Shown here in pieces: positions 12,185 through 46,417 of a stretch of 64,000 nucleotides of DNA. How positions within the stretch are numbered: position 1 is the stretch's first letter; every line of letters begins with the position of its first letter. The stretch is from a virus: the UHGV virus genome UHGV-0305822, one strand, 5' to 3'. The notes beneath the pieces were generated by a model, which saw nothing but the letters and a program-made list of their open reading frames with translations, ran no database searches and had not been told where the DNA came from. The translations under genes and the position numbers were made by a program.

Positions 12185-13390
12185 TTATTTCGTACCCGCT
12201 TCTGCCTGAACGTCATCACGGGACGTCAAGTTAGCGTTAACGTGTACTGGAGCCTGAACCACACCACCGTATTTCTTGTGGAGATAGCCTGTGTGTGGGT
12301 TATCCGCCGCAATATGGTTTTGCAGGTTCTGATTCGCCTGACTGATCGCGTTCGTGTTATTCGCAACCTGTTGTTTAAGCGCATCCAGGTTTTGTTGCAG
12401 ATTATCAATTTTCTGATCGGACTCATTACCCCGTTGTTCTAACGCAGCAATGCGCTGAATCGCTTGGTTGAGTTTGGTGCTCAGATCGTTGATATTTTTC
12501 TGTAACTGTAACACTAGCGAATTTAGGTTCGCCAATGCCAATGCCATTTTCTGGTAGTTTTGTGCAACGATGTTAAGTTGGTCGTTCCACGCTTCCAAAG
12601 ATTTGACAACAGCATCAATACGTTTTCCTAACGCTTCATCCGCTTTCTTCAACGCATTAATATCAGTAATGGTTGCATCGATGGCAGACTGTACATCACG
12701 GATAAGTGCACGGATCTCCGTTTCTGTTAACCCGTTAACCTGGTGAATATCCAGATGGTGGACGTTACCCGTGGCGTTAATGTGCGCGTTCAGCGCGTCC
12801 AGGAAATCGTTTTTCAGGCTTTCGAGAATCGCTTTGATGTTCTCAAGCTGTACAGCATCGCCCGCCGTTATCGCATCTTTAATGCCAGCGAGCACTGTAA
12901 TGATATATTCGAAGCCGTAAATATCGCCGACGTCTTTATACGTCGGTGCCGACGGAAATGTATCTGGAACATTTCGCAAGTCTTTAAAGCCAACAGTTCG
13001 ATTATCGAGATTCAACTCAGCAATCGCCTGTTCTATCGCAGTCACGTTTGCCGACTGCGGACCCCCGACCACTTGCGCCGAAACCGTGATATCGGTCGGA
13101 ATCGCGGTGTTCGTTACAACAACCGCCATTACCACTTCCCGGTTCTTCGTCAATTTCTCGTAAGCCGGGTGTGCAAAAATCAACTCATAGTCCGTTCCGC
13201 GCTCATACGTCGCATCGGGGCGGTTAGCAACCCGCAAGCGGAACGTATCAGCATAAAACGGACCGTCAGGAAAAGCAAACGCACGGTTAACTTTACCTGT
13301 ACCTAACGTAACCTGACGCTCCACGGCGTTAGAGGTTAGGGTTCCCGTTAAATCTAAAGGGTATTGGTATACAATGGAGGCCATGGCCAC
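12185..13390 (-). CDS. tail fibre-like protein (401 aa) with C-terminal coiled coil
   Basis: N-terminal FPDGPFY ... GTDYEL motif shared with the three giant ORFs; long heptad-like Q/N/L-rich region. Confidence 0.6.
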   Translation of the reverse strand: MAMASIVYQYPLDLTGTLTSNAVERQVTLGTGKVNRAFAFPDGPFYADTFRLRVANRPDATYERGTDYELIFAHPAYEKLTKNREVVMAVVVTNTAIPTDITVSAQVVGGPQSANVTAIEQAIAELNLDNRTVGFKDLRNVPDTFPSAPTYKDVGDIYGFEYIITVLAGIKDAITAGDAVQLENIKAILESLKNDFLDALNAHINATGNVHHLDIHQVNGLTETEIRALIRDVQSAIDATITDINALKKADEALGKRIDAVVKSLEAWNDQLNIVAQNYQKMALALANLNSLVLQLQKNINDLSTKLNQAIQRIAALEQRGNESDQKIDNLQQNLDALKQQVANNTNAISQANQNLQNHIAADNPHTGYLHKKYGGVVQAPVHVNANLTSRDDVQAEAGTK

Positions 13391-18608: not shown

Positions 18609-18621
18609 CGTAAAGACTCCT

Positions 18622-18664
18622 ACTTTTAAATAAAATGGATACCCCTCCCCATTACAGGGAGGGG
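18622..18664 (-). terminator. terminator hairpin between 1401-aa and 1727-aa fibre genes
   Basis: Stem CCCCTCCC/GGGAGGGG followed on minus strand by ATCCATTTTATTTAAAAG. Confidence 0.5.
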
Positions 18665-18702
18665 TTACCTACGGACACACAACTGCCCGCAGGCAGCCTG
18701 TC

Positions 18703-21700
18703 CTAAGTACGATCCCCTAACTGCTTCCCGTTAAGTTCTCGTTTCAGTACAGCCAAAATCCACTTCCACGCTTTACTCGTGATGTGGTACGGATTGCGTT
18801 TCTCCATTAAGAATTGACTTTCGCCGCTACGGAGTTCGAAGCTCTGCGCATTGAGTTGGTCTTGGCGAACACCGTTCTCGTCAGTGACATCTAACGAACA
18901 GGTAAAGTTAAGCTCGTAGCCCTCTGGATTATTGCCTGGTGGTTCTAAGACAATATAAATGTCCTGTCCTACACGTAGGTCCTTTGGCGTAAGGGTAACT
19001 GCTTTACCTGTGTCCGCGCTGGTCGAAAGCGCAAACGGCACGCTATCGATAGCTGATACATACGCGTCCTTCCCAGCATCGCCGATAATCACCTTACCCG
19101 GCCAGTTACACTTCACCGTTCCTGTCACTTTTGCAACACGGTACTGCTGTTTATCAGCACCTTGTGCAAAGCGTAAAATGAGTTTATGCCGATACCGGTT
19201 TGCGGCAGCTTTGGATGTACTCCACTCATTGTTCCAGGAGGCATGAAGTTCACCTTTCTTGGCCATCAAAGCACCACGAGACAGCTTACGTGGGAAGAAT
19301 TGTGCCGGAAGTTGCCCTTCGTGGGAAATCGCTACACTCCCTTGTCCGGTTGGAAGTGCTATTGTTTCAGTAGGGCAATAATTTAACTCGTACACGTGTG
19401 TTGTAGGATCGATCAATTTCTGATAGTAATCGCCGTCCTTACTGTCCGCTAACCAACCAACGGAAGAGTCCGTATACGATTCAAACAGTGAACGTAAATA
19501 GTGATACTTATCGATATCGATGTTACCCGTTTTTGGATCGATCAGTGCATGGTTAATAGTGAGGAAACACTTCTCACTCAAACCATTAAACGCCAAGCCC
19601 ACGCCGTCACCGGTAAAATAGTCTACCAGGTCAAATGGAAGCGTCATTTCTATTTGTCGCAAGTTGATAGTCGTTGAACCAAACTGCGAAAAAGATAGCG
19701 CTAAACGAAGTACACGAGTATTAACATTATAACGATAACGAATCATCCCACGCGGCGCATGGTTCGCGGAGATCTTATCACCGTTTGGACCCCACCCAAT
19801 TAAATCGAGTATTTCGGCGTTTGCTACTTCACCATTAAACAAAACGTCTTTAGTCGTGATTTCAACTGACGTTTCCCTTCCGCCATCCATTAACATCGAA
19901 CCGTTATTCAACTCGAAGCTCTTGTGCCAAACTTCAGAAGTCGAGCCAGCACCTACACCCACCTTACAAGTTTTACTAGTAAGGTTAATACGCACATAAC
20001 GGCGTCCCACTGTACCGCCCTGCGAGCTTGCACACAAAATAAGATCAGGTGCCGCAGACAGTGCCTTGGTCCCTGCAATGTCATCAACATCGAAAACGAA
20101 TGAGCCTTCGAACGTTGGTGCGTTATTTTCCTTCGGGTTAAATGGCGTGAACCAACAATAAGGCGTCGCGCCCTCGGTTGAGAAAATCAACTCTAAGTCA
20201 GATTTAACATTTAATCCGTGGGAATAAGAAAAAAGACCGCGACTTAAGGTACAAAGCGTTCCACCGCTTCCGCTACCTAAGGTTTTTCGATATATTAAAG
20301 CGCGGGGTTCTGGGATAGCACGGTTTAATAACGGCAACCGTGGGTTATCCGTTAACGTCCAGTCTACAGAACTGAGTCCGTGTGCTTTACGAGCGTCGAT
20401 GTGCTCACTAACCTCGGTACTTTTCCCGAAATCAAACGTGGTTTCAAAACTCACGGTTTTATTCGAGTAAGATTCACCGGCAACAATATCAACGTAGCCG
20501 ATATAACCGCGCTCAGGGTCAACTGCAATACTCTGAATTGGCTCAGTACGCGAATACAGAGAACCTGTGAGCATGTTAACGTACAGATAATGACGAATGC
20601 CTACGTGTGTTGTAACGAACTCTTGGAGAAACTCTACGTGCGTTTCAGGGCCACTGAAATAAACGGGGTAGTCACCGTCGTAAACTTCGAATTGCACTGC
20701 TGCGGATTTAGCCGTGTCGCTACACTCAGCTTTAACCGCTACGGTGTAGTTTTCAACGTCTGCTGATGTTTCATACACTGCAACAAGCGGAGACTGGCCT
20801 GTGGCTGCCTGGATACCGTTAATGTAAACTGTAACCGGGCCACCCCCTGCGGCATAAACCCAAAGCTTCGGCTGGCGTGCCCTTACCCGCGTTTTGGCCA
20901 ACACAGTAACAACTGACTGGTCACCCATCTGTGAGGCAGTTTTACCTACCGGAACAGATTGGAAACCCATTAGTGGTGGTTCTTCAATACCTGTCCAGTT
21001 AATGCCCTTACCAGCGCTCACTTTCCCCGTAGGCCAGGTCGTCTCAATTTGGTTGTTCGGTGAGAACCAGTTAAACATCGGCGTAGTTTGCAGGTCAATC
21101 GAACCTGTAACGGCGCTATCAGCTTTCGCACCGTTCAGCAAATAGAAATATTTCAAATCTTGAACGGAGATTGCCGTACCCTGACTATTAAAACGCCAGT
21201 CTGCACCTTTTACCGCAGCAAAATCCGTTACCGACCCTTCTTTCGCGTTCGCAATCGCCGCAGCAACCACATCTAAACGCGCCGAAAGTTCTTTTAAGAT
21301 GTTCGGTACCACTGCACGGTTTTCAACCAAACCGTTCTGGTTAGTTGCGTACCGACCGATACCGTAAACGGTTTGCGAGGCTTTATAAATGCCTAGTTCC
21401 GACCAATCGTGGTGGTGACCTGCATCCGCTAAACCACTAAGCGCCGTATTTAACTCGGTAGACAACGGCTTGTCAACGTCTGCGGTGTTATCCGCTTGCC
21501 CTAACCCCAGATCAGCTTTCGTGATTGTCCTGGAGCCGTCATTCATCGGCTTACCGTTAATCATGGTCGTTTTAGCCACATACCCCGATAAGTCGGTCGA
21601 GTATGGTGCTAACGAAGCCGGTGTTGCAGCAACCCCAGTCGTTTCTGTACCTTTACCTGTTTTAAGTTTAGCGACGCCTTTTTCGGCGGTTGTCGCTTTT

Positions 21701-22908
21701 GTTGGGTCGATAGTCCCCACGATAGGGTCGGCGCGAGAACCTTTACCGGTAAAGCTAATCCCATTACGACCTTCAATGTACACCTTCGAATCGTCAGGGT
21801 CGCCACCGCCACCAGAACCCGCATCTGGATCTTGTTGGTATTCCATCAACGCCGTGGTGGTCAGTAACGGGTTACCGTTCAGGGTGAGTTTGTTCATCCC
21901 TAAAGCATCGCCTGTTGACTCGATGCGTAATGTGTTTTTACCGGCACGCCAGTTGATATAACGTCCTGCACCTGTGCCTTCCAGATGTCCTACCGCTAAT
22001 ACCACAGAACCGTTGGATTTTAACGTAAAACCATCGTTGGCAAAAATGATTTCTGACTCACCGTTTTTCGAACGGAACTGTGCGCGGTTTCCTGACACCG
22101 TACAGTTAAACACGCCCCGTACTTCCGAAGAAATCCAGTGAGAGATATACGTGTCGATAACTGACTGGGGTAAACGAAACGCTTTCAGCTCATCCGTCAG
22201 TGCTTTCAACTTTAACCCGTACGCCATAAAGGTGTCGGGCGTTTTCAAGTTAACAGGATGCGCGTTAATCTGCGCGGATGTGGTTTCGTGCGGGTTCTTC
22301 GCTGCGATATGTGCTGGGTAGTTAAATGCTTCGATTTCTTTACCCAACGCAGTCACTAACGCTTTAACTTCAGCTAATTTGTCTTTAATTAGCTGGTTAG
22401 CGTCGTCGGTTTTCAATTCAATATCGTGAACTGCCGACGCTAAATATTTTTTGTTCAGCAAATCCGCCCAGGACGTTGCTGCTGGCGTCGCTGGATATAA
22501 CGATGGTCTACCGTCTAATAACAACCAGTCAGCACTGACTGGGTTATTCAAATATTTCACCAGTTCATCGAGAATGTCAACAAACGGGTCGTAGAACGTA
22601 CCGCCGAGCATTTGTCCTTCAAAGGTTACGATACCCTTGATGGATGGGTTGATAAGGTGTACCCCACAATACACGTTGGCTGCTACCGAGTCATCCAGTT
22701 CCGTCAGCTGATATTGCAGTTCGTAGTCCACCCCACGACTCAGTGGGGTGGTTGAACCTGGTTGTCTGACGACCAAATCTTCAAAGAACGGGCGGTGGTC
22801 TAAAATCACCACCCGATCGTTGTTGTTCTCTGACCCGATGATACGCTCCTCTAAGAAGTGATTCTCGGCTTTCGTCCCCCGAGGATCGTAAGGATACGCT
22901 TTCATCAA
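18703..22908 (-). CDS. large tail fibre protein (1401 aa)
   Basis: N-terminal HRPFF ... GVDYEL motif; ATTAEKGVAKLKTG...AATPASL resembles the phage fibre repeat A[ST]xxxxG..[KR]LAT...AVTP..L. Confidence 0.65.
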   Translation of the reverse strand: MMKAYPYDPRGTKAENHFLEERIIGSENNNDRVVILDHRPFFEDLVVRQPGSTTPLSRGVDYELQYQLTELDDSVAANVYCGVHLINPSIKGIVTFEGQMLGGTFYDPFVDILDELVKYLNNPVSADWLLLDGRPSLYPATPAATSWADLLNKKYLASAVHDIELKTDDANQLIKDKLAEVKALVTALGKEIEAFNYPAHIAAKNPHETTSAQINAHPVNLKTPDTFMAYGLKLKALTDELKAFRLPQSVIDTYISHWISSEVRGVFNCTVSGNRAQFRSKNGESEIIFANDGFTLKSNGSVVLAVGHLEGTGAGRYINWRAGKNTLRIESTGDALGMNKLTLNGNPLLTTTALMEYQQDPDAGSGGGGDPDDSKVYIEGRNGISFTGKGSRADPIVGTIDPTKATTAEKGVAKLKTGKGTETTGVAATPASLAPYSTDLSGYVAKTTMINGKPMNDGSRTITKADLGLGQADNTADVDKPLSTELNTALSGLADAGHHHDWSELGIYKASQTVYGIGRYATNQNGLVENRAVVPNILKELSARLDVVAAAIANAKEGSVTDFAAVKGADWRFNSQGTAISVQDLKYFYLLNGAKADSAVTGSIDLQTTPMFNWFSPNNQIETTWPTGKVSAGKGINWTGIEEPPLMGFQSVPVGKTASQMGDQSVVTVLAKTRVRARQPKLWVYAAGGGPVTVYINGIQAATGQSPLVAVYETSADVENYTVAVKAECSDTAKSAAVQFEVYDGDYPVYFSGPETHVEFLQEFVTTHVGIRHYLYVNMLTGSLYSRTEPIQSIAVDPERGYIGYVDIVAGESYSNKTVSFETTFDFGKSTEVSEHIDARKAHGLSSVDWTLTDNPRLPLLNRAIPEPRALIYRKTLGSGSGGTLCTLSRGLFSYSHGLNVKSDLELIFSTEGATPYCWFTPFNPKENNAPTFEGSFVFDVDDIAGTKALSAAPDLILCASSQGGTVGRRYVRINLTSKTCKVGVGAGSTSEVWHKSFELNNGSMLMDGGRETSVEITTKDVLFNGEVANAEILDLIGWGPNGDKISANHAPRGMIRYRYNVNTRVLRLALSFSQFGSTTINLRQIEMTLPFDLVDYFTGDGVGLAFNGLSEKCFLTINHALIDPKTGNIDIDKYHYLRSLFESYTDSSVGWLADSKDGDYYQKLIDPTTHVYELNYCPTETIALPTGQGSVAISHEGQLPAQFFPRKLSRGALMAKKGELHASWNNEWSTSKAAANRYRHKLILRFAQGADKQQYRVAKVTGTVKCNWPGKVIIGDAGKDAYVSAIDSVPFALSTSADTGKAVTLTPKDLRVGQDIYIVLEPPGNNPEGYELNFTCSLDVTDENGVRQDQLNAQSFELRSGESQFLMEKRNPYHITSKAWKWILAVLKRELNGKQLGDRT

Positions 22909-22918
22909 AAAATTCTCC

Positions 22919-25900
22919 TTAATCGCGAATGATTACCGCCTGCACTTTATTGTTGGTGTCGATAAACGACATTACGCGCTCCTTGTTAAGATAAGGAGGT
23001 ATCGGTAACGCAGCGTAATCCGCCAGGTTGTTATTAAATTCAGTTGCCACTAACGCATTAAGCGTTTCAGGGTCTGAACTGACACCGGTCAATTCCATAA
23101 CGCGCACACGATTTAATGAGGAATAGTTGCTAATATAGTCTAACAACGTACCATAGACTTTATTCGCGGTTGTGCTATCTGCCGTAGAACGGATGTTGGC
23201 ACGAACTTCATCCTCATAAAGTCCCCCTAAACCGTAGTAAATAGGGGTATACGGATCGTTAACGATAGGTGCGATATTGAACCCTGTTAGACGGTCAGTT
23301 AGAGGGATTTTCTGCGTAGCTCCCCCTGCTGCCGTGCAACTTACGTATTTATCAGTCGCAGATAAAAACACCACGATGGTATACGTAGTGCCCGCTAAGG
23401 TCAATGTTGCGTTAAACGTTATTGCGTTATTTGCAGCACGGGTGTGGGTAAACGTTACGTCAGGTTGTAACGTATTCCACGGCGCAGGCGTAACACGCTT
23501 CGTTGGTGTGAAACCTAACACTACCGATTTCCCGCTACCGAAGTTCAAACCGAACCCTGCGTAACAATATTCACCGTTGCTGTCAGTTAAACGATAACCA
23601 CGAGTGATAAGTAACGACAACCGCATAAACTCGCCGTCGGTGTTTTTCCAACAACCTAAAACAGTTTCTAGCACCGTGCCGGTTTTTGCGTTGCTTTCTG
23701 TTTCCCAACTTACCCGCATTCCTGCGTTCTTAAAAGCTGGGAACATGTTGTGGATAAACCCGTGTAGGTTATCGCTTACCCCTTTCGCGTCAAAAATCCA
23801 CTTGGATGCGAGCTGGTCGTATTTCACCCCGTCTAAAGCTTTATACTGCCCACCGGCAACATAACGCCAATCTGCTTCACCGCGTACTACTGCCTGGAGT
23901 CCAGAAGCCCAGCAAGGTGCGCCTACCGTTAAGTTAGCTAACCCAAGCGTTGCACGTGACGCGGAGCGCTGAATGTGTGCGTTGTCATCGGCTTTATGAT
24001 CTTTCAGTTCACGGAAATCACCCAACCGTGTGACATTACGCATCTCCGTAACGAACACCTCAGAAATGTCGTTAACACCAATCAACCCTACACGCGTCAT
24101 GGTATCCGTTTCAGCCTGACTGTAGCTGTCGTGGACAATATACTTCGCTTTGTTATCAACGATATCAACAAAAATCCCTGCGTAGATTTCTGTATTCAAT
24201 TTCGGAAAACGTTCACTGACGTTAATCGTCATCAACGGAACGTCGTATGTTTCACCACCGATAAAATACGTTGAAGCTGGAAGCGTGACCAGAATTTTGT
24301 CTTTGACCGTAAGGTCTATTAAGTCGTTACCAGACTCACCAAAACGTATAATGTCAAGACGTGCCTCCGAGTCAACGCCGCTGACAGCGCGCTCCAATTT
24401 TTCAATCTGGGAAGTCTGCGCCATTACCACACTCCCATCGAGTGCTAAAGTCGCATCATCCACATCCAGACCAAATTTAATCAGACCACGTTGCGCTGTG
24501 GTTGCGTTCCCAGTACCAAAAGCGGTAAACGGGTGTTGGTGAACTTTAGGCGAGTATTTATCTAACTCCGCACGTTGTGCTGTAGAAATCGGTAAATCGA
24601 CATCGGGCGTATTCGCAACGTTACCTAAACCAAAGGTAATCTTATCGATAGTAACCGAGCTGGTAAGTTGCATGTCGTTAATGTACGATTTAACTGCAAC
24701 TAATTTACCGGTGAACTCCGCATCGAGTTTTTCAATCAGTGCTGGCGTTGCTGCAAGGTTTTCAGCGGTACCGAACTCATCGGTCAACTGCCAAGCTGCC
24801 AGAGCTGTTGTATCGGTCGCGGTAGGGAGAATAAAGGTCGCTACGAACGGCGAGGCTTTTATCCCGCTACCGGTGATCGTAACCGTTGTTGTCGAGTTTG
24901 CGTAGAATAAACCTGTACCACCTGCGGTATTGCCTGGTAGATACGGGGCCACGGTGGTGGGGTCTAAAAGTTTTTTACCACGCCACTGTAACCCTCGATC
25001 ATCAGGATACAACATAAGCTGGTTAGTACCTGCTTGGAACGTTACGGGGTTGTTACCCACGTTAACATCAGTAGAACCTTGACCGATGAACTTAATGGAT
25101 TTCGGATCAACGACAAACTGAGCGCCTAAACGTGTTTCGTCAACAACATCCGGTGCTTTCTTAATGGTAACCGTGTTACCTTTGTTTTGCGAACTAATGG
25201 TAACGGCGTCGGCAACATTATTGATCAGCGATTTAAAGTGGTGCTGATTCTCTAATGCTTCTAACGCGGCGTCCATGTTATTGAAGTTAATCCGACCGCT
25301 ATACGTTTTACTGTTTACGGTAATAACGACGTCAAACACATTCCCTGTACGCTTCAGTTGAAAACGTAGCGTAAAATCCCCATCCGGTATTGCCGGATTA
25401 GGAGCTTGTGAAATATACCGAACTGCCGGTACCGGACTCCCGTAACCGTGCAACGCCAGTTCGATAGTAAGAGTACCGGACCAGACTTCACCGCTAATCT
25501 CTACGTACTTACCGGAGTTACTACCAGGATTTTCGTAGAAACGTAAACCAACCCTACCGACCGCTTCATTACCAGACGCTGTTTTACGACCAGTAACAAT
25601 AAAGTCTATATCTTGCAGGTTGGCAGGCACCGCATTAAAGTTAGCACTGAAACCGCTTTTCGCTCCTGTGTAACGAAGCGCGCCGTGATATCTGTGACCT
25701 CTACTAACATAGCTTTCGCTAAAATAAGGACTCACGTATTTCGACATCGAAACCGGATCAACTTCCGTCGTGAACGAAGTAAAACCCGGAAGTGTGGTAA
25801 TCGTGCCGTTAACGTTCTTGCTCGCCGATTCACGAAGCAGTTTTTTCTGTGCGGTTAACGTTGCTTGTGTTGGGTACTTAGCATTAACGTAATCCGTTAA

Positions 25901-27241
25901 CTGCTGTTTCGTTTTCCCGTAAGCTAACGCGGCATCCGACGCAATACCATTCAGCTCTAACGCACGGATCGGACCCCACGTATCGGTGTGCGGGTTGTCC
26001 TTACGTGTAACGTGTTCGTGTGCAGGCGCGTTACGATACAGCTGCTCAACTAACTGATGGTATTTGACTATTAACTGGTAGACATCGTTATCGACGTCAG
26101 GTTCTGGTGCGCCGGGTAAAGAACGAATTTGAATATAATCGTTTTCGGCCGCATACCAGTTTAAATTAATGTTCGTTTTAAACTTCAACCATTTAGCAAC
26201 ATCCGTTTTCGAATACCCTGCCGAGAACTCATCAGGCGGTGTATCGACATTGAATGTGTAATCCATGGTCTGTTTATTTGTTTTTACTACGATGACGTAA
26301 ACACCGTTTCCGGGTTGACGGGTTACACTAAAATCGATATCGTTTTTTAACTCATCGTCAGTTAAACCGTTGATTAACGTATAATCGTAGTTTGTTGAAC
26401 CGCTACCAATAGCGACCGTTAAGACCAGTGAGATTTTGCGCTGTTTTAGCTGCAACCGTAGAATACTTGCACCGCCGTTAGCATAACAGAGCATCCAATC
26501 GATCTGTTCGTTTGGATTCAATTTCGTCATGTCTGGCAGAATAGCAGGAATTCTGTGTTTCACTGACAGGGCGTAGTCGTTAAAGGTTGCAGTTTTATAA
26601 CTCAAGCTATAACGATGACGGGTAGTGTTGTAGGTGAAGCCACCTTTATTGTCGTATACGGCATACTGCTCGGAAGTGATAACCTTGCTATTAGCACGGT
26701 ATTCTAAATCCAGGGTATTGCGTGCGATGGGGTTAAGTCGACTCACGACTTCCCCTAACGAATCGCCTAATCCAGCAATAGCCTGCATTAATTCCAGTTC
26801 ACCTTTCCAATTCTCCCAATCGAACTGGATATCGACCGGCGGAAAGTAAACGTCCCCGATGACGGTGTCCCACTGACACGCAGACGGGTATTTATCTTTA
26901 TTGAGTTCGCGTTCTGCGGTAATCTGTTGTTGGGTAGCCTGACCACAACCAACGGCGTGGTAATCTACCGTAAAATTCGATTTGTATTTGTCATTAACAA
27001 TCCAAATCATCCCGTGAATGAGATAGGCTGTGCGCAACATACCGGTCTCGTACGGGTGTGTAATAACGTAATCGTCGCCTAAGGTCAGTGTTTTGCCGCC
27101 GCTCTTGACCACCAGGGATGTGGTGAAAAAAGGGGCGTGGGCAGGTACCAACATTCGGTATTTCGTACCAATGACGGCGACCGCTTCACCGGTTATTTTA
27201 TTCCCCGGTTTTTTGAAGTGTGGGTCTAGGACGACAGCCAT
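22919..27241 (-). CDS. large tail fibre protein (1440 aa)
   Basis: N-terminal HAPFF ... GDDYVI motif; TTAQRGLIKFG fibre-repeat-like segment; only 10 nt from next gene (co-transcribed). Confidence 0.65.
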   Translation of the reverse strand: MAVVLDPHFKKPGNKITGEAVAVIGTKYRMLVPAHAPFFTTSLVVKSGGKTLTLGDDYVITHPYETGMLRTAYLIHGMIWIVNDKYKSNFTVDYHAVGCGQATQQQITAERELNKDKYPSACQWDTVIGDVYFPPVDIQFDWENWKGELELMQAIAGLGDSLGEVVSRLNPIARNTLDLEYRANSKVITSEQYAVYDNKGGFTYNTTRHRYSLSYKTATFNDYALSVKHRIPAILPDMTKLNPNEQIDWMLCYANGGASILRLQLKQRKISLVLTVAIGSGSTNYDYTLINGLTDDELKNDIDFSVTRQPGNGVYVIVVKTNKQTMDYTFNVDTPPDEFSAGYSKTDVAKWLKFKTNINLNWYAAENDYIQIRSLPGAPEPDVDNDVYQLIVKYHQLVEQLYRNAPAHEHVTRKDNPHTDTWGPIRALELNGIASDAALAYGKTKQQLTDYVNAKYPTQATLTAQKKLLRESASKNVNGTITTLPGFTSFTTEVDPVSMSKYVSPYFSESYVSRGHRYHGALRYTGAKSGFSANFNAVPANLQDIDFIVTGRKTASGNEAVGRVGLRFYENPGSNSGKYVEISGEVWSGTLTIELALHGYGSPVPAVRYISQAPNPAIPDGDFTLRFQLKRTGNVFDVVITVNSKTYSGRINFNNMDAALEALENQHHFKSLINNVADAVTISSQNKGNTVTIKKAPDVVDETRLGAQFVVDPKSIKFIGQGSTDVNVGNNPVTFQAGTNQLMLYPDDRGLQWRGKKLLDPTTVAPYLPGNTAGGTGLFYANSTTTVTITGSGIKASPFVATFILPTATDTTALAAWQLTDEFGTAENLAATPALIEKLDAEFTGKLVAVKSYINDMQLTSSVTIDKITFGLGNVANTPDVDLPISTAQRAELDKYSPKVHQHPFTAFGTGNATTAQRGLIKFGLDVDDATLALDGSVVMAQTSQIEKLERAVSGVDSEARLDIIRFGESGNDLIDLTVKDKILVTLPASTYFIGGETYDVPLMTINVSERFPKLNTEIYAGIFVDIVDNKAKYIVHDSYSQAETDTMTRVGLIGVNDISEVFVTEMRNVTRLGDFRELKDHKADDNAHIQRSASRATLGLANLTVGAPCWASGLQAVVRGEADWRYVAGGQYKALDGVKYDQLASKWIFDAKGVSDNLHGFIHNMFPAFKNAGMRVSWETESNAKTGTVLETVLGCWKNTDGEFMRLSLLITRGYRLTDSNGEYCYAGFGLNFGSGKSVVLGFTPTKRVTPAPWNTLQPDVTFTHTRAANNAITFNATLTLAGTTYTIVVFLSATDKYVSCTAAGGATQKIPLTDRLTGFNIAPIVNDPYTPIYYGLGGLYEDEVRANIRSTADSTTANKVYGTLLDYISNYSSLNRVRVMELTGVSSDPETLNALVATEFNNNLADYAALPIPPYLNKERVMSFIDTNNKVQAVIIRD

Positions 27242-38220: not shown

Positions 38221-38225
38221 CGTTT

Positions 38226-38298: not shown

Positions 38299-40803
38299 AT
38301 GCTAAAAGTTGAACGCATTATACTCAAAGGTTTTACGGGGATGGGGTTACATGAAATTGAAACCTTCGATTTCACTATCCAGTCTCCAACAACAATTATC
38401 CTGGGTGGGAACGGCTGCGGGAAAACCAGTCTACTGTCTGTGTTCTTACCCTTAGCACCGGCTAAAACCGAATTTAGGGACGGCGGTTCTTACACAAACT
38501 ACTGTTTAGTTGGCGATCAACGCTATCGATTCAAAGTTGCCCGTAAAGGCAACTCTTTGGTTTGTGATATTGAGAACTTGACCACGGGGACAAAGATCGT
38601 CGAGCAAGGTAATGCGAAAGTCTACAACTCCCGTGTTGAAGAAATCACGGGTATTACGAAAGAGATTAAAGAACTATTAAATGGTGAGGTGTTGTTAACC
38701 GATGCGGGAACCGAATTACGCCGCAAATGGTTTTACCGTTTAAGTACCTCTGACCTCACTTACGCGTTAGGGTTTTATCAGCGTTTACGTAAAAACCTTA
38801 CTGCCTTAAATGGGGGTATTGAAATCACCAGCCGCAAGATCGCCGAATTACGGACGCGTGTTATTGAGAACGAGGAAGAACGGCAGCAGTTAGCGACGAG
38901 ATTAAAAGGTTTGGAATCGGATTTACGTGAACTGAACCGAGAAATCGAACAGTTGCCAGGATTAAATCGTGCCGTCACCATCGAAACAATCCAAGCGTTA
39001 TTAAACAGCTTGGGCCCAACCATCGACGCAATATTACAACATCGTGGTGGCCTGCCTACTGATGAACAGATACTGACCGCGCGACAAAACGAAGCTACGG
39101 CCCGCGAAGCTGTCGTGTCTACTGAAACAGAGGTATCGATGTTGAATAAAGACTTGTCGTTATTAATGGATGAGTCGACACGACAAGACTACCTGATGCG
39201 GAATCACGAAGGTCTCAAGAATACGCTGGCACGTTTACGTGAGTTACTTACCAAATGGGACACCGAACATCTCTTTCCGGGTCTATTTAACGACAACATC
39301 AATTTAGACCAACTTCGTGCGGCTACAGATGCGCGTGTTTGGGGGCAACGGTTGGGAACAACACTAGACGCAATTCATTCAACCGAAAAACTTAACGTTT
39401 TGGAAGAACGACTTCTGGTGATGGATCAAAAAACCGCAGGGATGCGGGATAGACTCCAGCGAGTGGAGAACGTTTTACAGAATTTAAATCACGAACGTAA
39501 TCACTACTTAGAAACAGCGGAAGTGGATTGCCCGCAGTGTCGGTTTAAGTTTCGGCCCGGTGTTACGCGTTCTTTACCTGAACTTGAGTCTTCGATTCGC
39601 GGACAACAACAGCAGCGCACGGAACTGCAAACACAGTTAGAGGCCCTATTACGCGATCGTGTTGAATTAGAATCTGATGTAACTTATATGCGGCAGGTTC
39701 GTGAGATTGTACTGACGTATTCAAAGGACCCGGTATTGAGCATGTTCTTTAAGCGTTTGCAAGAACGTAACGTTTTCACAGAATCACGCGAACAGTTCGG
39801 GAGTCTATGCGCAGCGTTTGACAGTGAGTTGTACTCTGCTATTGAGTACCATGAAACCCGACAACGGTTAGTGAAGGCGGAAAAAGAATGGCAGGATGCC
39901 GTAGCGGCCGTTGGTAACGTCGATGGTGCTTTACAACAGAAAATCGCCTTCCAACAGTCACGATTAGGTAAAGCCACAGAAATGCTCTCAATGCGTCGTA
40001 GAGAGCACGAACTGGCTAACACGACACTTACCTATCTGGTGAATGTTAAACGTGCTGTAGATGATTTCAGTGCGTTATTCGAACGGTTAGAGAGTGATGT
40101 TAAGGTTACGTTGACAAATACGGTCGTCGAGGAACTCTTACGTGCACGAGAAGGGAAGCTGGATGCTTTTACAACCGCACGCGAACGTTATCGTCAGATG
40201 GAAAATGAATTGAATCAGCTCAACAGTTTGGAACGCGAACTTGCTGACTTACAAGCCCAGCAGTTCAATAACAAACTGATGATTCAAGCCTTCTCGCCAG
40301 AAAAGGGTGTACTTAGAAAGTATTTTTACAACGCTATCGTTAGAATCACAGAGTTAATGACGCGTTATATCGAACAAGTCTGGACGTACCCCATGCGCGT
40401 TATGCCTTGTGACCTCACTGACGGCGATTTGGATTATACTTTTCCTGTCCAGCTAAAAACGCATCCTGAGCCTGTTCCTGACGTGCGTAAAGGGTCTAAG
40501 GCGCAGCGTGCGATATTTAATCTGATGTTCAGGCTGACCGCGTACAAAGCGCTGAAGTTGCATCAGTTTCCGTTGCTTTTGGATGAGCCTTCGGAAGGCA
40601 TGGATGAGGAGCACCGTAACAACCTGGTCGGCTTTATTAAAACGTTAGCAAACTCGGGAGAATTTTCTCAACTGTTGGTAGTCTCCCACGAAGCCGAGGT
40701 TCATTCTAAACTTAATGAAGCATCGTACTGTGTCATCGAACCGGAAGGGGTGACATTGCCTGCGGTGTATAACGAAGGAGTAAAAATTGTTTATGCAAAC
40801 TGA
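38299..40803 (+). CDS. Rad50/SbcC-like ABC-type ATPase with zinc hook
   Basis: Walker A GGNGCGKTS near N-terminus; long coiled-coil-like middle with central CPQC (zinc-hook-like); C-terminal LLLDEPSEGMD Walker B/D-loop; ATG at 38299 after GGAGGTGGG (ORF track start 38224). Confidence 0.7.
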   Translation: MLKVERIILKGFTGMGLHEIETFDFTIQSPTTIILGGNGCGKTSLLSVFLPLAPAKTEFRDGGSYTNYCLVGDQRYRFKVARKGNSLVCDIENLTTGTKIVEQGNAKVYNSRVEEITGITKEIKELLNGEVLLTDAGTELRRKWFYRLSTSDLTYALGFYQRLRKNLTALNGGIEITSRKIAELRTRVIENEEERQQLATRLKGLESDLRELNREIEQLPGLNRAVTIETIQALLNSLGPTIDAILQHRGGLPTDEQILTARQNEATAREAVVSTETEVSMLNKDLSLLMDESTRQDYLMRNHEGLKNTLARLRELLTKWDTEHLFPGLFNDNINLDQLRAATDARVWGQRLGTTLDAIHSTEKLNVLEERLLVMDQKTAGMRDRLQRVENVLQNLNHERNHYLETAEVDCPQCRFKFRPGVTRSLPELESSIRGQQQQRTELQTQLEALLRDRVELESDVTYMRQVREIVLTYSKDPVLSMFFKRLQERNVFTESREQFGSLCAAFDSELYSAIEYHETRQRLVKAEKEWQDAVAAVGNVDGALQQKIAFQQSRLGKATEMLSMRRREHELANTTLTYLVNVKRAVDDFSALFERLESDVKVTLTNTVVEELLRAREGKLDAFTTARERYRQMENELNQLNSLERELADLQAQQFNNKLMIQAFSPEKGVLRKYFYNAIVRITELMTRYIEQVWTYPMRVMPCDLTDGDLDYTFPVQLKTHPEPVPDVRKGSKAQRAIFNLMFRLTAYKALKLHQFPLLLDEPSEGMDEEHRNNLVGFIKTLANSGEFSQLLVVSHEAEVHSKLNEASYCVIEPEGVTLPAVYNEGVKIVYAN

Positions 40804-40972
40804 TTGGTTCCGTCGTATTGTGGATGCGGCAGGGTTTGGCTTCATGTCCATTCTAGCGGTTCTTTATGTCATGTTTTGTGTGGTGATGATTTTATGGGTA
40901 GTTTCATCTTATCTGATTAAACTATCGTGGGGTTCAATTTGGCGTCAACGCGAATGCGAATGGCGGAATTAG
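40793..40972 (+). CDS. small membrane protein (59 aa)
   Basis: Hydrophobic stretch FGFMSILAVLYVMFCVVMILWVVSSYLI; ATG at 40793 overlapping upstream stop. Confidence 0.4.
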   Translation: MQTDWFRRIVDAAGFGFMSILAVLYVMFCVVMILWVVSSYLIKLSWGSIWRQRECEWRN

Positions 40973-40982
40973 GAGAGGGAAT

Positions 40983-41081
40983 ATGGTTGTAGGGGTTCTG
41001 TTAACACTTGGCTCGTTGTGGTTAATTGGTAAAGGTTTAAACTGGCTGATTAAACGTCACCGTTGGGCGTTCGAAGATTAA
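40983..41081 (+). CDS. small hydrophobic peptide (32 aa)
   Basis: MVVGVLLTLGSLWLIGKGLNWLIKRHRWAFED, AGGAGAGGGA RBS; not in ORF track (short). Confidence 0.3.
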   Translation: MVVGVLLTLGSLWLIGKGLNWLIKRHRWAFED

Positions 41082-41138
41082 CCACCCAAATAATCCAGAA
41101 GATACCCTCCGGTGTGAGGGTATTGACAGGAGCAGAAA

Positions 41139-41267
41139 ATGACCACGATAAACGCTACGAATGTAGCGATATCCGCACTATACGACGCGGAACTTTCATG
41201 GGGTGGATTAATGATCACCACAGCCATATTAGCCGCTGCGGCTTTCGTCATCGCGCGTTGGTTTTAA
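41139..41267 (+). CDS. small hydrophobic peptide (42 aa)
   Basis: MTTINATNVAISALYDAELSWGGLMITTAILAAAAFVIARWF, AGGAG RBS 6 nt upstream; not in ORF track (short). Confidence 0.3.
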   Translation: MTTINATNVAISALYDAELSWGGLMITTAILAAAAFVIARWF

Positions 41268-41298: not shown

Positions 41299-41742
41299 AT
41301 GGAAATTTATTTGTTGAACGCATCTTCTAAAGTCGGTGAACGACAAGCTGCCGATTTACTCAAACTACACTACCGTTACTTGGACCACCAGGCTACATTA
41401 CTGAAAATCAAAACGTCGGTGCCGAAGTTAAATGCGCGACAGCTGATCGAAGGTAACTGCATAGTTCTGGTGTATCAGGATGATGTCGCGGTAGGATACT
41501 GTAGTTATCGGAATCGTAACGGTTCACTTAAGATACGTTCGGTATACGTGCTCCCAGACTATCGTCAACGGGGTGTAATGAAAGAGATTTTCAAAGCAAT
41601 TGCAGCTGATGAAGTTTTCGGCGAGATTGTTACTGGCATGTATGCGAAATGTAAAGAAGCAAAAGAGTATTTCATCCGACGCGGCTATCAAGCGGTTTAC
41701 TCACACGATCGTGAGTGGGTCGATTTTAGCAAAACATTCTAA
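41299..41742 (+). CDS. GNAT-family N-acetyltransferase candidate
   Basis: VYVLPDYRQRGVMKEIF resembles the GNAT acetyl-CoA-binding motif A region; ATG at 41299 (ORF track start 41293 is TTG). Confidence 0.4.
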   Translation: MEIYLLNASSKVGERQAADLLKLHYRYLDHQATLLKIKTSVPKLNARQLIEGNCIVLVYQDDVAVGYCSYRNRNGSLKIRSVYVLPDYRQRGVMKEIFKAIAADEVFGEIVTGMYAKCKEAKEYFIRRGYQAVYSHDREWVDFSKTF

Positions 41743-41808
41743 AAACAATAAAGCTCTCTTGGCGTACCTCACTATGAGTGTGAGAAATTTACGTCAGGAG
41801 AGCTAATT

Positions 41809-42054
41809 ATGTTAAAATCGTACGGAGTGGGTGGTTTGGATACGAGTATTTGTTGGAAAGAATACGAACGTGCGAAAGCGTTCTTACAGCATCCCAATGT
41901 GGGGACGATAGGTAAGGTCTGTTTCGGCAAACCTTCACTGACGGCTTGTATCCAAGGGGCTTTAGGGACGTTGCCACCCGAATCACATTTCGAGCCTGAG
42001 GAGAATATGAATGTTCACAGAGAACCCATCAATTTACGGCATACCGTTGAATGA
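41809..42054 (+). CDS. hypothetical protein (81 aa)
   Basis: ORF with GGAGAG RBS. Confidence 0.4.
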   Translation: MLKSYGVGGLDTSICWKEYERAKAFLQHPNVGTIGKVCFGKPSLTACIQGALGTLPPESHFEPEENMNVHREPINLRHTVE

Positions 42055-42379
42055 AATTGATATTCTGCAAATTTGTTATCAATGTGGTGACTTCGGTAAG
42101 ACGCAGGTAACGCCGTTAGTTAAGCTTTTAGGTTACTTGCCTGAAATCGAGTTGCCTTTTGTTAAACCCAGTTTAGTTCGTCGCGCATCGTGTCGTGAAG
42201 CTTATTTGCTCTGGAAACACAATATTTCAGTAGAGAATGTCTGGGACCGTATGAACGATCATCAGTTCCGTGAGCAGGTCGTCCACACGCTTAACTTGTC
42301 ACTGACTATGCAGCGCCTGGGCTTACAACACGAAGGTTTAGAAGCGGCGGTCAAGCAATGGATTACGAAAAATCGATAA
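42011..42379 (+). CDS. hypothetical protein (122 aa)
   Basis: ORF overlapping upstream gene end; GAGGAGAA RBS. Confidence 0.45.
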   Translation: MFTENPSIYGIPLNEIDILQICYQCGDFGKTQVTPLVKLLGYLPEIELPFVKPSLVRRASCREAYLLWKHNISVENVWDRMNDHQFREQVVHTLNLSLTMQRLGLQHEGLEAAVKQWITKNR

Positions 42380-42466
42380 TGGGTAAAACATATATCGCTA
42401 TACTTGTCGAGCTATCAATCGGCGGTACACGTTTTAATACTACACATCAACTCCGGGCGTTTCGTT

Positions 42467-42964
42467 ATGTTAACGGTACGTAAAGAATCTGAAATTGGTA
42501 ACGATCTTTTTAATGCGCCCGAAGACTATAAAGTCGTTACCATTAACTGCGTAGGAGCGATGGGTCGCGGTATTGCACTCGCGTGTCGTGAACGCTACCC
42601 CAACCTTTATCAGGATTATCGTAAGCGGTGTCGTGAAGACGAAATTAAGATTGGAAGCGTTTACGTTTACTCTGACGAAAAGTGTATCTTGCTCCCCACG
42701 AAAACACATTGGCGTTTAAAATCCCAGGTTTCTTATGTTACTGCGGGCATTACCGCATTAGCAGACTGTGTTGAGGATCTGGATACCAGCGTTGCTATCC
42801 CTCCGTTGGGAATGGCAAATGGGTGGTTAGATTCCTGGGAAAGACAAGAAATCTTTTTGTGGCTTTACAAAAAACTTGAACCGAGGAGGCAGCGCTACAC
42901 GTTATACTTACCTGATAAGCTGTACCAAGAAGCAGAGTCATTAATTCCAAACTCTTTTAAATAG
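42467..42964 (+). CDS. TARG1/DarG-like macrodomain protein (ADP-ribose hydrolase candidate)
   Basis: NCVGAMGRGIALACRERYP parallels TARG1 DCRMGAGIAVLFKKKFG; later AIPPLGMANGWLDSWERQ parallels SMPRIGCGLDRLQWENV (comparison from memory); ATG at 42467 (ORF track start 42404 is TTG). Confidence 0.6.
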   Translation: MLTVRKESEIGNDLFNAPEDYKVVTINCVGAMGRGIALACRERYPNLYQDYRKRCREDEIKIGSVYVYSDEKCILLPTKTHWRLKSQVSYVTAGITALADCVEDLDTSVAIPPLGMANGWLDSWERQEIFLWLYKKLEPRRQRYTLYLPDKLYQEAESLIPNSFK

Positions 42965-43064
42965 ATATTATCATTAGGGCACACAACAAAGGAGTATTAG
43001 CTGTCCGCGCCGTCATTTCGTCTTACGGAATACGGAAATGTATAAATCCAACTGGAGAAACAAA

Positions 43065-43763
43065 ATGTTTCGTATCTTCTTTCTTTTACTGGTAACACTT
43101 TTCGCGTTTAACGCACAGGCGTCAACGTCAACGCCACATTCTAAGCATCAGCGTGAGTTTGCACAAATCCAACATCGGTTCGAAAAAGTCAGCCCGTTAA
43201 TTGTGGAAATCTCACGAAAGCAGGGCGTTGATCCCAAGCTGATGATTACGCTGATTTATCGTGAATCGCGTTTTGATCCCAAGGCTTACAACAAAAGCTC
43301 ACGAGCGCACAGCCTGGTACAAATGCTTCCAAGTACCAAGCGTAATCTGCTAAAGCTTTATGGAAAAGAATTAGGTCTTAGTCAGAACGCCGATTTGTAT
43401 AATCCGCGTAACGCTGTTTTGCTGGCTACCGCGTATGTTAAACATCTTGAGAAGGGGTTAACCAAACGACTCAAACGCAAGCCCACCATGGCTGAAATTG
43501 CGTTAGCTTACCACTGGGGTGAAAGTGGCGCTCACACGCGAATCAAAAGCAAATCTCGAGCAGCACAACGAGAAATGGCAGGCTTTATGAAAGACGCCGC
43601 GTTCTATAGCGCGAAAATCGATGTGCCTGTTGTTGTGGGCTCGGCCCCACGTCAGCTTGCGTTTGCGAAGAAAACACCACGTCAGATTCAACTGGCGGAA
43701 GTTAGTAGAATTTGGGATACGATAAACATGAGTTTTCCAATCAATAGAGGAGTTACCCTTTGA
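43065..43763 (+). CDS. secreted lytic transglycosylase (SLT domain) candidate
   Basis: Signal peptide MFRIFFLLLVTLFAFNAQA; YRESRFDPKAYNKSSRAHSLVQMLPST resembles the SLT catalytic ES ... G(L)MQ(L/I)(M)P motif; ATG at 43065 after GGAGAA. Confidence 0.55.
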   Translation: MFRIFFLLLVTLFAFNAQASTSTPHSKHQREFAQIQHRFEKVSPLIVEISRKQGVDPKLMITLIYRESRFDPKAYNKSSRAHSLVQMLPSTKRNLLKLYGKELGLSQNADLYNPRNAVLLATAYVKHLEKGLTKRLKRKPTMAEIALAYHWGESGAHTRIKSKSRAAQREMAGFMKDAAFYSAKIDVPVVVGSAPRQLAFAKKTPRQIQLAEVSRIWDTINMSFPINRGVTL

Positions 43764-44868: not shown

Positions 44869-45804
44869 ATGACTTTTCCATCTGAAGTAATTTACGAACT
44901 GGCTAACACTCTACGTCGTCACTATAGCAGCAAAATGATGCAAACCCACGTGGGTGCGACTGCTGACTTTTTGCGCGGCCATTTCCTGGGCAATAACCCA
45001 CCGTCGATTACACAGGAAACGGTTTTCTCTATCGATCGTGCCTCCTTAATTCTTCCAATCGACCACGCCATTGCGGTTCAAGAAGGGAATACGTTCAACT
45101 TCTCTATGGGAATGCGACATTCGTCTAATGTCGTTAACTCAAGCATGGGAAATGACCCGTCTTTCGCACACAACACGCACTCTGTAGAACATGGTAACTG
45201 GTTCGTTGCTGTAGAACAAGGCGTGAATCAGTATGACGTTGTTGCAGCTCGCGATGAGTCTTTCTTTGAGCTGGGACAGATTTCTCGCCGTCGTGAAATT
45301 GCGCTTGACCTACGTCAAGGTAATATCGGATTAAGTGGGACCAGTGTTTATTTCATCCTGAGCAGTTGGGCACATGTAAGTTACGTGCTGAAAAATGCCA
45401 GCCCGACGTTCCACGCAACGATGGTAGAATTTCGTAGCCTTGATGTAGGAAATCATGACGAAGAAGAAACGGTACCTAGCACAGAAGTCGCCGTCTGTGA
45501 AGACTACGATGATCTGAAATCTGTACTCGTTAAGCGTGATGTTTTCGAATCGTTAAACCTGGATTTCCCCGGTGACGAAAATGAAATATCCGTAGCTGAT
45601 CTGGTAGAAGCGTTGTGTCAGAAAGACCAAGCTAATGAGATCAGTGACGAAGAAGCAGAACTCTTCCAAGTTCAACAACTCGTCAGCAAGGTTATCGGTG
45701 GACAGGGAATCGTTGACACTCTTATGGCTCTACCGCCGAAGAAACGTACTCAGAAGTACATTCGTGAACTGGTTCTTGAAAACCTTGGTCAAACCAAAAA
45801 GTAA
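44869..45804 (+). CDS. hypothetical protein (311 aa)
   Basis: Long ORF, AAAGAGGA RBS. Confidence 0.55.
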   Translation: MTFPSEVIYELANTLRRHYSSKMMQTHVGATADFLRGHFLGNNPPSITQETVFSIDRASLILPIDHAIAVQEGNTFNFSMGMRHSSNVVNSSMGNDPSFAHNTHSVEHGNWFVAVEQGVNQYDVVAARDESFFELGQISRRREIALDLRQGNIGLSGTSVYFILSSWAHVSYVLKNASPTFHATMVEFRSLDVGNHDEEETVPSTEVAVCEDYDDLKSVLVKRDVFESLNLDFPGDENEISVADLVEALCQKDQANEISDEEAELFQVQQLVSKVIGGQGIVDTLMALPPKKRTQKYIRELVLENLGQTKK

Positions 45805-45865: not shown

Positions 45866-46417
45866 ATGTTTCCATCGTCTGAATATTTAACTCATCTGGC
45901 TTACGGTATTCGCCGTGGTTCTGTTTTCCGCACACGTTTAAAGGATATAAATTTCCTGGCTAATTTCTTATTTGATCGTTTGTGGGATGGCGATAGTGTT
46001 TACAAAAAGATCACCGTAACACAACTTTATTCCCTTATAGCAGCATCTGAAATTGTGCCTACTGATATTCGTCGATTTAAACGACAGCATAACGGGGAGG
46101 TTACAATCAGCTTTCTTGATCGTTCTCCTATTACCGTTGAAATCGACGATCGTATTGACGCTAATAGTGAAATGTCTGGTTGGAAGATTCTGTTTGATTG
46201 TGGCAATCGTTATGCGGTACTTGGTTCCTCTGATGAGCGCGACTTCCCTTTCGACAAACCTTACTACTACCTCAGTGAAGATGATTTCCCGGATAAAGAA
46301 TCTAACATCTTTTTAAACGGAGACACAGTTTACTTCATTTTTCGTACCTGGAACGATGTTGCTGCTATGATTGCTCAAGGCGTCATCGATTACCGTAAAC
46401 TAGAAGTCGACATTTAA
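45866..46417 (+). CDS. hypothetical protein (183 aa)
   Basis: ATG after TTAGGAGTATTAAA. Confidence 0.55.
   Translation: MFPSSEYLTHLAYGIRRGSVFRTRLKDINFLANFLFDRLWDGDSVYKKITVTQLYSLIAASEIVPTDIRRFKRQHNGEVTISFLDRSPITVEIDDRIDANSEMSGWKILFDCGNRYAVLGSSDERDFPFDKPYYYLSEDDFPDKESNIFLNGDTVYFIFRTWNDVAAMIAQGVIDYRKLEVDI

Follow-up and report, generated by a model that had tools for sequence, protein, structure and literature searches.

The DNA analysed here is a stretch of 64,000 nucleotides from the virus genome UHGV-0305822 (hereafter the window), and the genes in question lie at positions 41,299 to 42,964, all on the + strand. They encode a GNAT-fold acetyltransferase of 147 amino acids (41299..41742; assigned through Pfam, phrog_3810 and AlphaFold), two small proteins called orf81 (81 amino acids, 41809..42054; phrog_28329/phrog_12626) and orf122 (122 amino acids, 42011..42379; phrog_11720, 1.6e-29), and a stand-alone DarG2-like macrodomain of 165 amino acids (42467..42964; assigned through Pfam Macro, DarG models and PDB matches). 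An earlier note on this DNA had described a GNAT-like open reading frame (ORF) two small genes upstream of a macrodomain gene on the same strand, which coordinates, Pfam and PHROG confirm, and had proposed that the two products either act in a linked modification/reversal pathway or are independent factors. The block is framed upstream by the gene of an SbcC/SMC-like ATPase (38299..40803, + strand; phrog_77 SbcC-like, 8e-92, and Pfam SMC_N), which is syntenic in all related loci compared, and downstream by that of a lytic transglycosylase that has an SLT domain and, at its N-terminus, a signal-like segment (43038..43763, + strand; Pfam SLT 8.8e-15, phrog_4067 6e-47), which directly follows the macrodomain gene in all related loci.

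When the region was compared by Megablast with 50,697 phage records, no match was obtained, and comparisons with relatives were therefore all made at the protein level. The closest relatives at that level, with 34–65% identity, are SPN3US (Seoulvirus) and Erwinia phages of the genera Erskinevirus, Machinavirus and Wellingtonvirus, all of them jumbo phages; copies 85–99% identical are present on four IMG/VR contigs of 107–225 kb. Elsewhere in the window are found genes typical of the SPN3US-like group, namely those of three giant paralogous virion proteins, an RNase H and a UvsX-like recombinase. The source phage is a jumbo phage of the nucleus-forming, Chimalliviridae type and is related to SPN3US and Asesino.

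The macrodomain and its relation to AdfM

The macrodomain scores above the Pfam Macro cut-off (25.5 bits, cut-off 22), and its best PDB matches are the DarG proteins of M. tuberculosis (5m3i, 7.5e-26) and T. aquaticus (5m31, 9e-21). It also matches the NCBIfam model antitoxin_DarG (2e-36) and the PADLOC DarG model (2e-37), the former over positions 7–155 of 338, that is over the macro half only, with 125.9 bits, below the cut-off of 250. In the PDB search at E ≤ 1 no MacroD-type chain was found; the remaining matches were 7omu (a Macro domain-containing protein, 2.3e-11), Poa1-like phosphatases (0.02–0.05), an eIF5A chain (0.78) and SCO6735 (0.86). Among phage proteins, Asesino gp217 (YP_009290835.1), which is syntenic and occupies the same slot between SbcC and SLT, shares 62% identity with it, and PhiKZ gp104 shares 35%. 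The catalytic residues N27 (42545–42547) and K79 (42701–42703) are invariant in the alignment, PhiKZ gp104 included, and align with N23/K78 of the PhiKZ protein and N22/K80 of the T. aquaticus protein.

The function of these phage orthologs is documented. PhiKZ gp104 strips the ADP-ribose made by DarT2 from thymidines in single-stranded DNA (ssDNA), rescues DarT2 toxicity and is required to infect DarTG2 hosts, and it was named AdfM, short for ‘anti-DarT factor macro’ (Morgan et al., Cell Rep 2026, PMC13309987). The AdfM set of that work comprises PhiKZ gp104, PhiPA3 gp108, Goslar gp83 and Asesino gp217; entry into the phage nucleus was demonstrated with the proteins of PhiKZ, PhiPA3 and Asesino (Asesino gp217-GFP being nuclear), and DarG2 macrodomains have, according to the authors, exclusively DNA ADP-ribosylation as substrate (PMC13309987).

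Judged by these relationships, the window macrodomain is a DarG2-like ortholog of AdfM, predicted from orthology and the conserved catalytic Asn and Lys to remove ADP-ribose from DNA. In infected cells, it would act on ADP-ribose placed by host DarT2 on ssDNA in the phage nucleus. It shares with AdfM its stand-alone nature, a length of ~165 amino acids, the catalytic Asn/Lys and its occurrence in a chimallivirus-type jumbo phage, and differs in that it is known here as a sequence, whereas activity and nuclear import were shown with the proteins of other phages. With the DarG proteins of DarTG2 systems (T. aquaticus and M. tuberculosis; PDB 5M31, 5M3E and 5M3I) it has in common the macrodomain subtype and the catalytic residues, but it is devoid of the C-terminal DarT-binding half and of an adjoining DarT, which is present in 12 viral-contig loci. 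In the window locus, no DarT, sirtuin or ADP-ribosyltransferase gene adjoins the macrodomain gene. The earlier note had started from the hydrolysis of O-acetyl-ADP-ribose by macrodomains; because the present protein is of the DarG2 subtype, with no MacroD-type chain among its PDB matches, that premise does not fit.

The reading frame of the macrodomain is open from 42404, 21 codons before the likely ATG at 42467, where the homologues start. In SPN3US, the separately annotated small gene gp195 (locus L001, 7719–7967) overlaps the start of the macrodomain gene by 50 nucleotides. Annotation of the start site is thus uncertain in the clade.

The GNAT-fold protein and its relatives

The GNAT ORF begins with an ATG, with a TTG 6 nucleotides upstream, and reads VYVLPDYRQRGVMKEIF at residues 83–99. 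The profile search proposed in the earlier note bears out the assignment, with scores above the gathering thresholds of three Pfam GNAT families, namely Acetyltransf_1 (33.1 bits, threshold 20.7), Acetyltransf_7 (32.9 bits, threshold 27) and Acetyltransf_10 (27.0 bits, threshold 23.6), and a match at 1e-25 to phrog_3810, annotated ‘acetyltransferase’. The AlphaFold (AF2) model has the mixed alpha/beta topology of GNATs, with a predicted local distance difference test score (pLDDT) of 93 and a predicted template modelling score (pTM) of 0.85. Searched with Foldseek, this model gives 577 PDB matches at E ≤ 1e-3, and the best 50 of the 577 are all GNATs, with template modelling (TM) scores up to 0.74; near the top stand the protein acetyltransferases HP0935, Coxiella RimI, NatC, Ard1 and Naa50, and PaiA and ArsN are also among the matches. 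The motif A of GNATs, which forms the acetyl-CoA pyrophosphate loop, has the consensus Q/R-x-x-G-x-G/A. By alignment, it corresponds to R89-Q-R-G92-V-M94 in the window protein (41563..41580, + strand), the glycine G92 being replaced by K in SPN3US and by Y in Wellington. Helix alpha1 holds residues that are invariant in the family, and the ratio of nonsynonymous to synonymous substitution rates (dN/dS), measured against the relative at locus L005, is 0.05, indicating strong purifying selection. On the strength of the model and these matches, the protein is a genuine member of the acetyltransferase fold and belongs to a small, clade-confined family with predicted acetyl-transfer activity.

The nearest relatives of this family were sought with a family profile. 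Against the PDB, YjcF ranks first, followed by Ard1 and Naa50 at ~1e-3. Against 1.84 billion representative proteins, seven clusters are found at E ≤ 1e-30, and for the next-best matches the RimI family (TIGR01575) is the best NCBIfam family in nine of the 10 tested, one of them above the cut-off. In addition, AMR59843.1, which according to its record is SEGD1 gp196, the ortholog of the window GNAT, has been cited as closest to the GNATs acting on ribosomal proteins (Iyer et al. 2021). The nearest cellular relatives thus appear to be protein N-alpha-acetyltransferases of the RimI/NAT type, an assignment that is best taken as soft. With RimI, which N-alpha-acetylates EF-Tu and the alanine of ribosomal protein bS18, and with the NAT enzymes Ard1 and Naa50, the nearest cellular or solved relatives, the window protein shares the GNAT fold and a similar size; it differs from RimI by a score far under the cut-off of the RimI model, by the Met in motif A and by a Phe in place of the catalytic Tyr. 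We infer that its substrate would be one of the proteins of the translation machinery, and nothing in an ADP-ribose pathway.

Small phage GNATs that modify a host or defence protein are known, and AcrVA5, for example, acetylates Cas12a. Likewise Rac of phiKMV-like phages acetylates the alpha subunit of RNA polymerase, as cited in PMC7824862. Rac and AcrVA5 differ from the window GNAT by their targets and by having no detectable specific sequence relationship to it. The GNAT could alternatively be an enzyme acting on small molecules (polyamine, antibiotic or metabolite), in which case its adjacency to orf81 would reflect inherited order only. Several of its structural neighbours have such substrates (PaiA, a spermidine/spermine acetyltransferase, ArsN and the tabtoxin-resistance protein), its best weak NCBIfam match is ArsN2, and the related phages phiEaH2 and Caitlin encode active spermidine N-acetyltransferases (PMC9992855). 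These last, which are GNATs of the same phage clade, are nevertheless SpeG-like and encoded ~95 genes away from the gene of the GNAT family, so that the niche is already filled there. The profile search points to RimI-like proteins as the nearest cellular relatives, and the invariant residues of helix alpha1 together with the constant presence of orf81 downstream would suggest a macromolecular partner. An action on small molecules is therefore considered doubtful, though it retains some modest probability.

The identity of the window GNAT with the tested spermidine enzymes was itself rejected, since the accessions belong to different genes (YP_007237670 of phiEaH2 and YP_009292176 of Caitlin for the spermidine enzymes, YP_007237764 and YP_009292274 for the respective genes of the GNAT family); no SpeG-like spermidine acetyltransferase gene is present within the window. 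A GNAT toxin paired with a ribbon–helix–helix (RHH) antitoxin, as in modules of the TacAT or AtaRT type, was also considered and rejected: PADLOC gives no match for the GNAT or its neighbours, the upstream ORFs are hydrophobic and no DUF1778/RHH domain was found.

An EF-Tu-like fragment beside the GNAT gene

In each of the 17 clade loci examined, and likewise in the 15 clade loci of IMG/VR, the GNAT gene is directly followed by a homologue of orf81. The family counts 48 phage records, in the same taxa as the GNAT (50 records) and orf122 (46 records), and some GenBank records label its members ‘putative elongation factor Tu’. The relationship to elongation factor Tu (EF-Tu) is supported by several comparisons. 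For four diverged members the best NCBIfam families are EF-Tu models (3e-4, 6e-6, 0.016 and 0.008); with a six-member profile the top 59 PDB matches are all EF-Tu N-termini (5e-7 to 1.6e-4); and in a collection of 5.8 billion proteins the only matches outside the family are EF-Tu fragments. Smith–Waterman scores of the family against E. coli TufA reach 58–84, while shuffled sequences give 27–30 ± 4.5 and none of 2000 shuffles attains the observed value.

In the window protein, the EF-Tu-like block covers residues 17–52 (41857..41964, + strand) with the sequence KEYERAKAFLQHPNVGTIGKVCFGKPSLTACIQGAL, and in the family it corresponds approximately to EF-Tu residues 3–36 (beta1, P-loop and alpha1), extending to ~48 in Asesino. 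The motif H.NVG.IG is invariant in 27 members, and the P-loop has degenerated (it reads GKVCFGKP in the window protein). Asesino gp213 and the Erwinia-phage members carry HVNVGTIGHVDH, in which 12 consecutive residues are identical to EF-Tu. The likeness to TufA thus concerns the N-terminal residues ~3–48 (the elf18 region, beta1, P-loop and alpha1), whereas the members are only 41–112 amino acids long, have a family-specific N-terminal helix (CW.EY.R), and are devoid of motifs G2–G5 and of domains 2 and 3. With a P-loop GxxxxGK[ST] that is not intact, orf81 does not qualify as a translational GTPase; in terms of homology, it is an EF-Tu N-terminal fragment and not a GTPase. Modelled alone with AF2 it gives a pLDDT of 51, which is uninformative.

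This resemblance seems to be ancient. Residues identical in orf81 and tufA share their third-codon positions in proportions ranging from 7 of 18 to 8 of 13, nucleotide identity over the block is 52–65%, and a recent capture of host tuf DNA was rejected on these grounds; the scrambling of third-codon positions indicates that the similarity is old and conserved at the protein level. The dN/dS ratio of orf81 is 0.15, again a sign of purifying selection. A fusion of the GNAT and orf81 by read-through, conceivable as the two genes are in the same frame in the window, was likewise discarded, owing to two intervening stops and to the different frames in SPN3US. A literature search found no study of the orf81 gene, and neither the SPN3US genetics nor the Asesino paper contains anything on gp191–196 or gp212–213; in these two phages the GNAT is gp191 and gp212, orf81 gp192 and gp213, and the macrodomain gp196 and gp217, respectively. 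In one distant relative (L110, 4249–4374), a 41-amino-acid homologue of orf81 lies directly between the GNAT and the macrodomain gene; it keeps the N-terminal helix (MFNR..LDTDVCW) and has a poly-Glu tail in place of the EF-Tu-like block.

The association of a RimI-like protein with a fragment of EF-Tu recalls that RimI acetylates EF-Tu (PMC9079301). EF-Tu being a RimI substrate and orf81 the conserved partner of the GNAT, EF-Tu or the orf81 fragment itself would be the most likely target or adaptor of the GNAT, a suggestion made with low confidence. More specifically, the GNAT and orf81 could form a two-gene module aimed at EF-Tu in SPN3US/Erskinevirus-like jumbo phages. The phage GNAT might then acetylate EF-Tu, with orf81 acting as adaptor, competitor, regulator or decoy, and the purpose of such a module would be the retuning of translation or resistance to host toxins that target EF-Tu. 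This proposal is tentative, and the chance that it is right is estimated to be small.

A narrower version, in which orf81 is a decoy for a toxin or defence system directed against EF-Tu, with the macrodomain or the GNAT in the same anti-toxin response, has a precedent on the toxin side. The Salmonella Rhs toxin TreTu ADP-ribosylates the P-loop of EF-Tu at D21 (PMC9825190), the hosts of these phages are Enterobacterales, and the Erwinia-phage members of the orf81 family keep HVNVGTIGHVDH exactly, the equivalent of D21 included. However, that position is not conserved (the window protein has Cys there, that of SPN3US Ala), the conserved part of orf81 would correspond approximately to the buried beta1 strand of EF-Tu and not to a surface epitope, AdfM orthologs act on DNA, and a literature search found no phage-defence ADP-ribosyltransferase targeting EF-Tu. 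Such a decoy role is very unlikely.

Gene order and functional linkage

The order SbcC, GNAT, macrodomain, SLT is kept in SPN3US, Asesino, phiEaH2, Caitlin and Wellington, with other genes before and after the GNAT and the SLT gene adjoining that of the macrodomain. The GNAT and the macrodomain are separated by one to six genes: four in SPN3US, Asesino, phiEaH2 and Caitlin, six in Wellington and two in the window. The two families differ widely in their distribution. Phage records with the macrodomain gene number 283, among them jumbo phages of the phiKZ-like, Phabio-like, Serratia and Erwinia Ea35-70-like groups as well as N4-like coliphages and actinophages; those with the GNAT family number 50, all of them jumbo phages of Erwinia, Salmonella, E. 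coli or Proteus apart from one labelled only ‘Bacteriophage’; no Cronobacter phage appears among the GNAT matches in the phage records. The sister genus Derbicusvirus (CR5 and Derbicus) and Vibrio pVa-21 retain SbcC, the macrodomain and SLT without the GNAT, orf81 and orf122, and the macrodomain also occurs without the GNAT in phiKZ-like and N4-like phages.

The neighbourhood of the macrodomain gene was compared in 80 IMG/VR loci encoding its relatives. The GNAT family was found in only 15 of them, all of the SPN3US-like clade, even with the HMMER filters off. Furthermore, 131 neighbouring ORFs of 100–260 amino acids, located within 2.5 kb of the macrodomain gene in 38 representative loci from outside the clade, were scanned with Pfam; no acetyltransferase match was obtained beyond the positive control, and the same scan returned 12 DarT, one NADAR and one Mom. 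As observations on these loci in their own right, 24 of the 80 viral contigs with a DarG-like macrodomain (IMG/VR, L043–L104) encode a full-length DarG of 350–400 amino acids, and DarT adjoins the macrodomain gene in 12 of the 38 representative loci, so that whole DarTG modules are present on many contigs of viral or prophage origin; NADAR adjoins it in one locus and Mom in one.

Distant GNAT relatives (P0156, P0157 and P0159), not found in IMG/VR, were located in Logan contigs. There, L106–L108 have three GNATs in tandem with an NrdB-like gene, instead of the macrodomain, after them, and L109 and L110 have the GNAT and the macrodomain as neighbours within the SbcC–SLT block. The GNAT slot 3′ of SbcC is also expanded elsewhere, with two tandem GNATs in Wellington-like phages (L009, 3594–4049 and 4046–4528) and in L109 (4541–4969 and 5001–5462), compared with the three of L106–L108 (L106, 3983–5522).

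With presence and absence that are independent of each other and a spacing that varies, the GNAT and the macrodomain vary independently within a conserved backbone. Their proximity is probably a matter of gene order inherited around a variable cassette, which lies between SbcC and AdfM, and not of a shared pathway. By our own estimate, the chance that a GNAT lies within three genes of the macrodomain is a few percent (for ~260 genes and two or three GNATs), and adjacency alone is therefore weak evidence. The co-occurrence analysis suggested in the earlier note shows the two genes linked in SPN3US, Erskinevirus, Machinavirus and Wellingtonvirus; the linkage does not extend to the sister genera or to the 38 loci outside the clade, which have no GNAT within 2.5 kb of the macrodomain gene.

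The pathway proposed in that note, where acetylation by the GNAT and hydrolysis or reversal of O-acetyl-ADP-ribose by the macrodomain would form one modification/reversal module, draws on the common strand, on the lack of a convincing + strand terminator between the two genes and on their joint presence in all clade members and in the distant L109 and L110. It is countered by the DarG2/AdfM type of the macrodomain, whose orthologs have DNA as demonstrated substrate, by the lack of an adjoining sirtuin or ADP-ribosyltransferase, by macrodomains without GNAT in the sister genera and in ~230 other phage records as well as in the 38 loci outside the clade, and by the variable spacing and intervening genes, while synteny of the whole block explains the linkage. 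Moreover, AdfM is nuclear, whereas the expected targets of a RimI-like enzyme would be translation proteins of the cytoplasm. This pathway is accordingly judged highly improbable, and the other alternative of the note, that of independent factors, is favoured.

The locus is therefore best described, with good though not full confidence, as two functionally separate units, the AdfM macrodomain on the one hand and the RimI-like GNAT with orf81 on the other, brought together by inherited gene order. A number of observations weigh against this description. On the side of the GNAT, TIGR01575 is often the best model for small GNATs, which makes the term ‘RimI-like’ soft; the window protein itself reaches only 17.4 bits where TIGR01575 requires 86.4, and has a slightly higher score with ArsN2. 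In the alignments its motif A reads R-x-x-G-x-M, the final G/A position being an invariant Met, and the usual position of the catalytic Tyr is an invariant Phe (F125), from which it follows that catalysis may be unusual or absent. As to orf81, L110 has lost the EF-Tu-like block, Wellington-like phages have it in degenerate form, and the gene itself is missing in L109, so that its pairing with the GNAT is not universal; the roles given to both families are drawn from sequence and predicted fold. For the macrodomain, TARG1-type macrodomains, the class that includes DarG, can deacylate O-acyl-ADP-ribose. Finally, all members of the SPN3US-like clade have both the GNAT and the macrodomain, as do L109 and L110, and the comparative data remain compatible with a functional tie restricted to this lineage.

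Taken to their extreme, the atypical motif A and the Phe at the Tyr position would make of the GNAT a catalytically dead, binding-only protein, and the loss or degeneracy of the EF-Tu-like block in some lineages, with the low pLDDT of the orf81 model, would make of orf81 a decaying remnant without function. The purifying selection on both genes (dN/dS of 0.05 and 0.15), the H.NVG.IG motif kept in 27 members despite third-codon positions scrambled with respect to tufA, and the good Shine–Dalgarno sites of both GNAT and orf81 speak for functional products instead, and this explanation is unlikely.

Several features of the locus complete the description of these two units. The interval belongs to a block of genes that share one orientation and are probably co-transcribed. 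The start of orf122 overlaps the end of orf81 by 44 nucleotides, and Shine–Dalgarno sequences precede both (GGAG 8 nucleotides before the ATG of orf81, GAGGAG 7 nucleotides before that of orf122). A scan of the region for sigma-70 promoters and terminators gave no signal above shuffled background; SPN3US-like jumbo phages use their own RNA polymerases. The orf122 family (phrog_11720), whose 46 phage records belong to the same clade, is absent in Caitlin, ChrisDB and L020, and has no Pfam or PDB relatives. Upstream, the start of the SbcC-like gene is uncertain, the longest ORF opening at a TTG at 38224; its ortholog in SPN3US, gp186, is essential (SPN3US genetics). Between it and the GNAT gene lie three small hydrophobic ORFs on the + strand (40787–40972, 40983–41081 and 41139–41267), which are kept in the close relatives L003–L006, one of them (tm2) being weakly conserved in SPN3US and Asesino. 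For the SbcCD proteins of T4 (gp46/47), membrane anchoring by the small transmembrane protein gp47.1 has been proposed (Thomas et al. 2016), and the ORFs that follow the SbcC-like gene (40787–41267) could be analogous to gp47.1.

Further away in the window, the three giant virion structural proteins (1727, 1401 and 1440 amino acids) are encoded by adjacent paralogous genes on the − strand (13425–27241) that cross-match phrog_7449, phrog_8078 and phrog_7557, with a fourth, shorter paralogue at 12185–13390. A radical SAM domain protein is encoded on the − strand in the structural region (7816–9138; phrog_1802, 1.9e-114). The adjacent genes at 44869–45804 (311 amino acids) and 45866–46417 (183 amino acids) cross-match in relatives at ~1e-5 and are probably diverged paralogues.

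As regards the biology of these phages, the locus adds a divergent ortholog to AdfM and a member to a phage GNAT family that is already annotated and restricted to one clade, and the proximity of the two genes is not to be read as a pathway. The pairing of the GNAT with a fragment of EF-Tu is the only element that could prove to be new biology: a clade of nucleus-forming phages maintains, under purifying selection and beside a RimI-like GNAT, a piece derived from the first 35–50 residues of EF-Tu. If it is true that the GNAT and orf81 act together on EF-Tu, this would be a new route by which phages manipulate or shield translation, and would mean that a piece captured from a host translation factor is employed in a way not described before.

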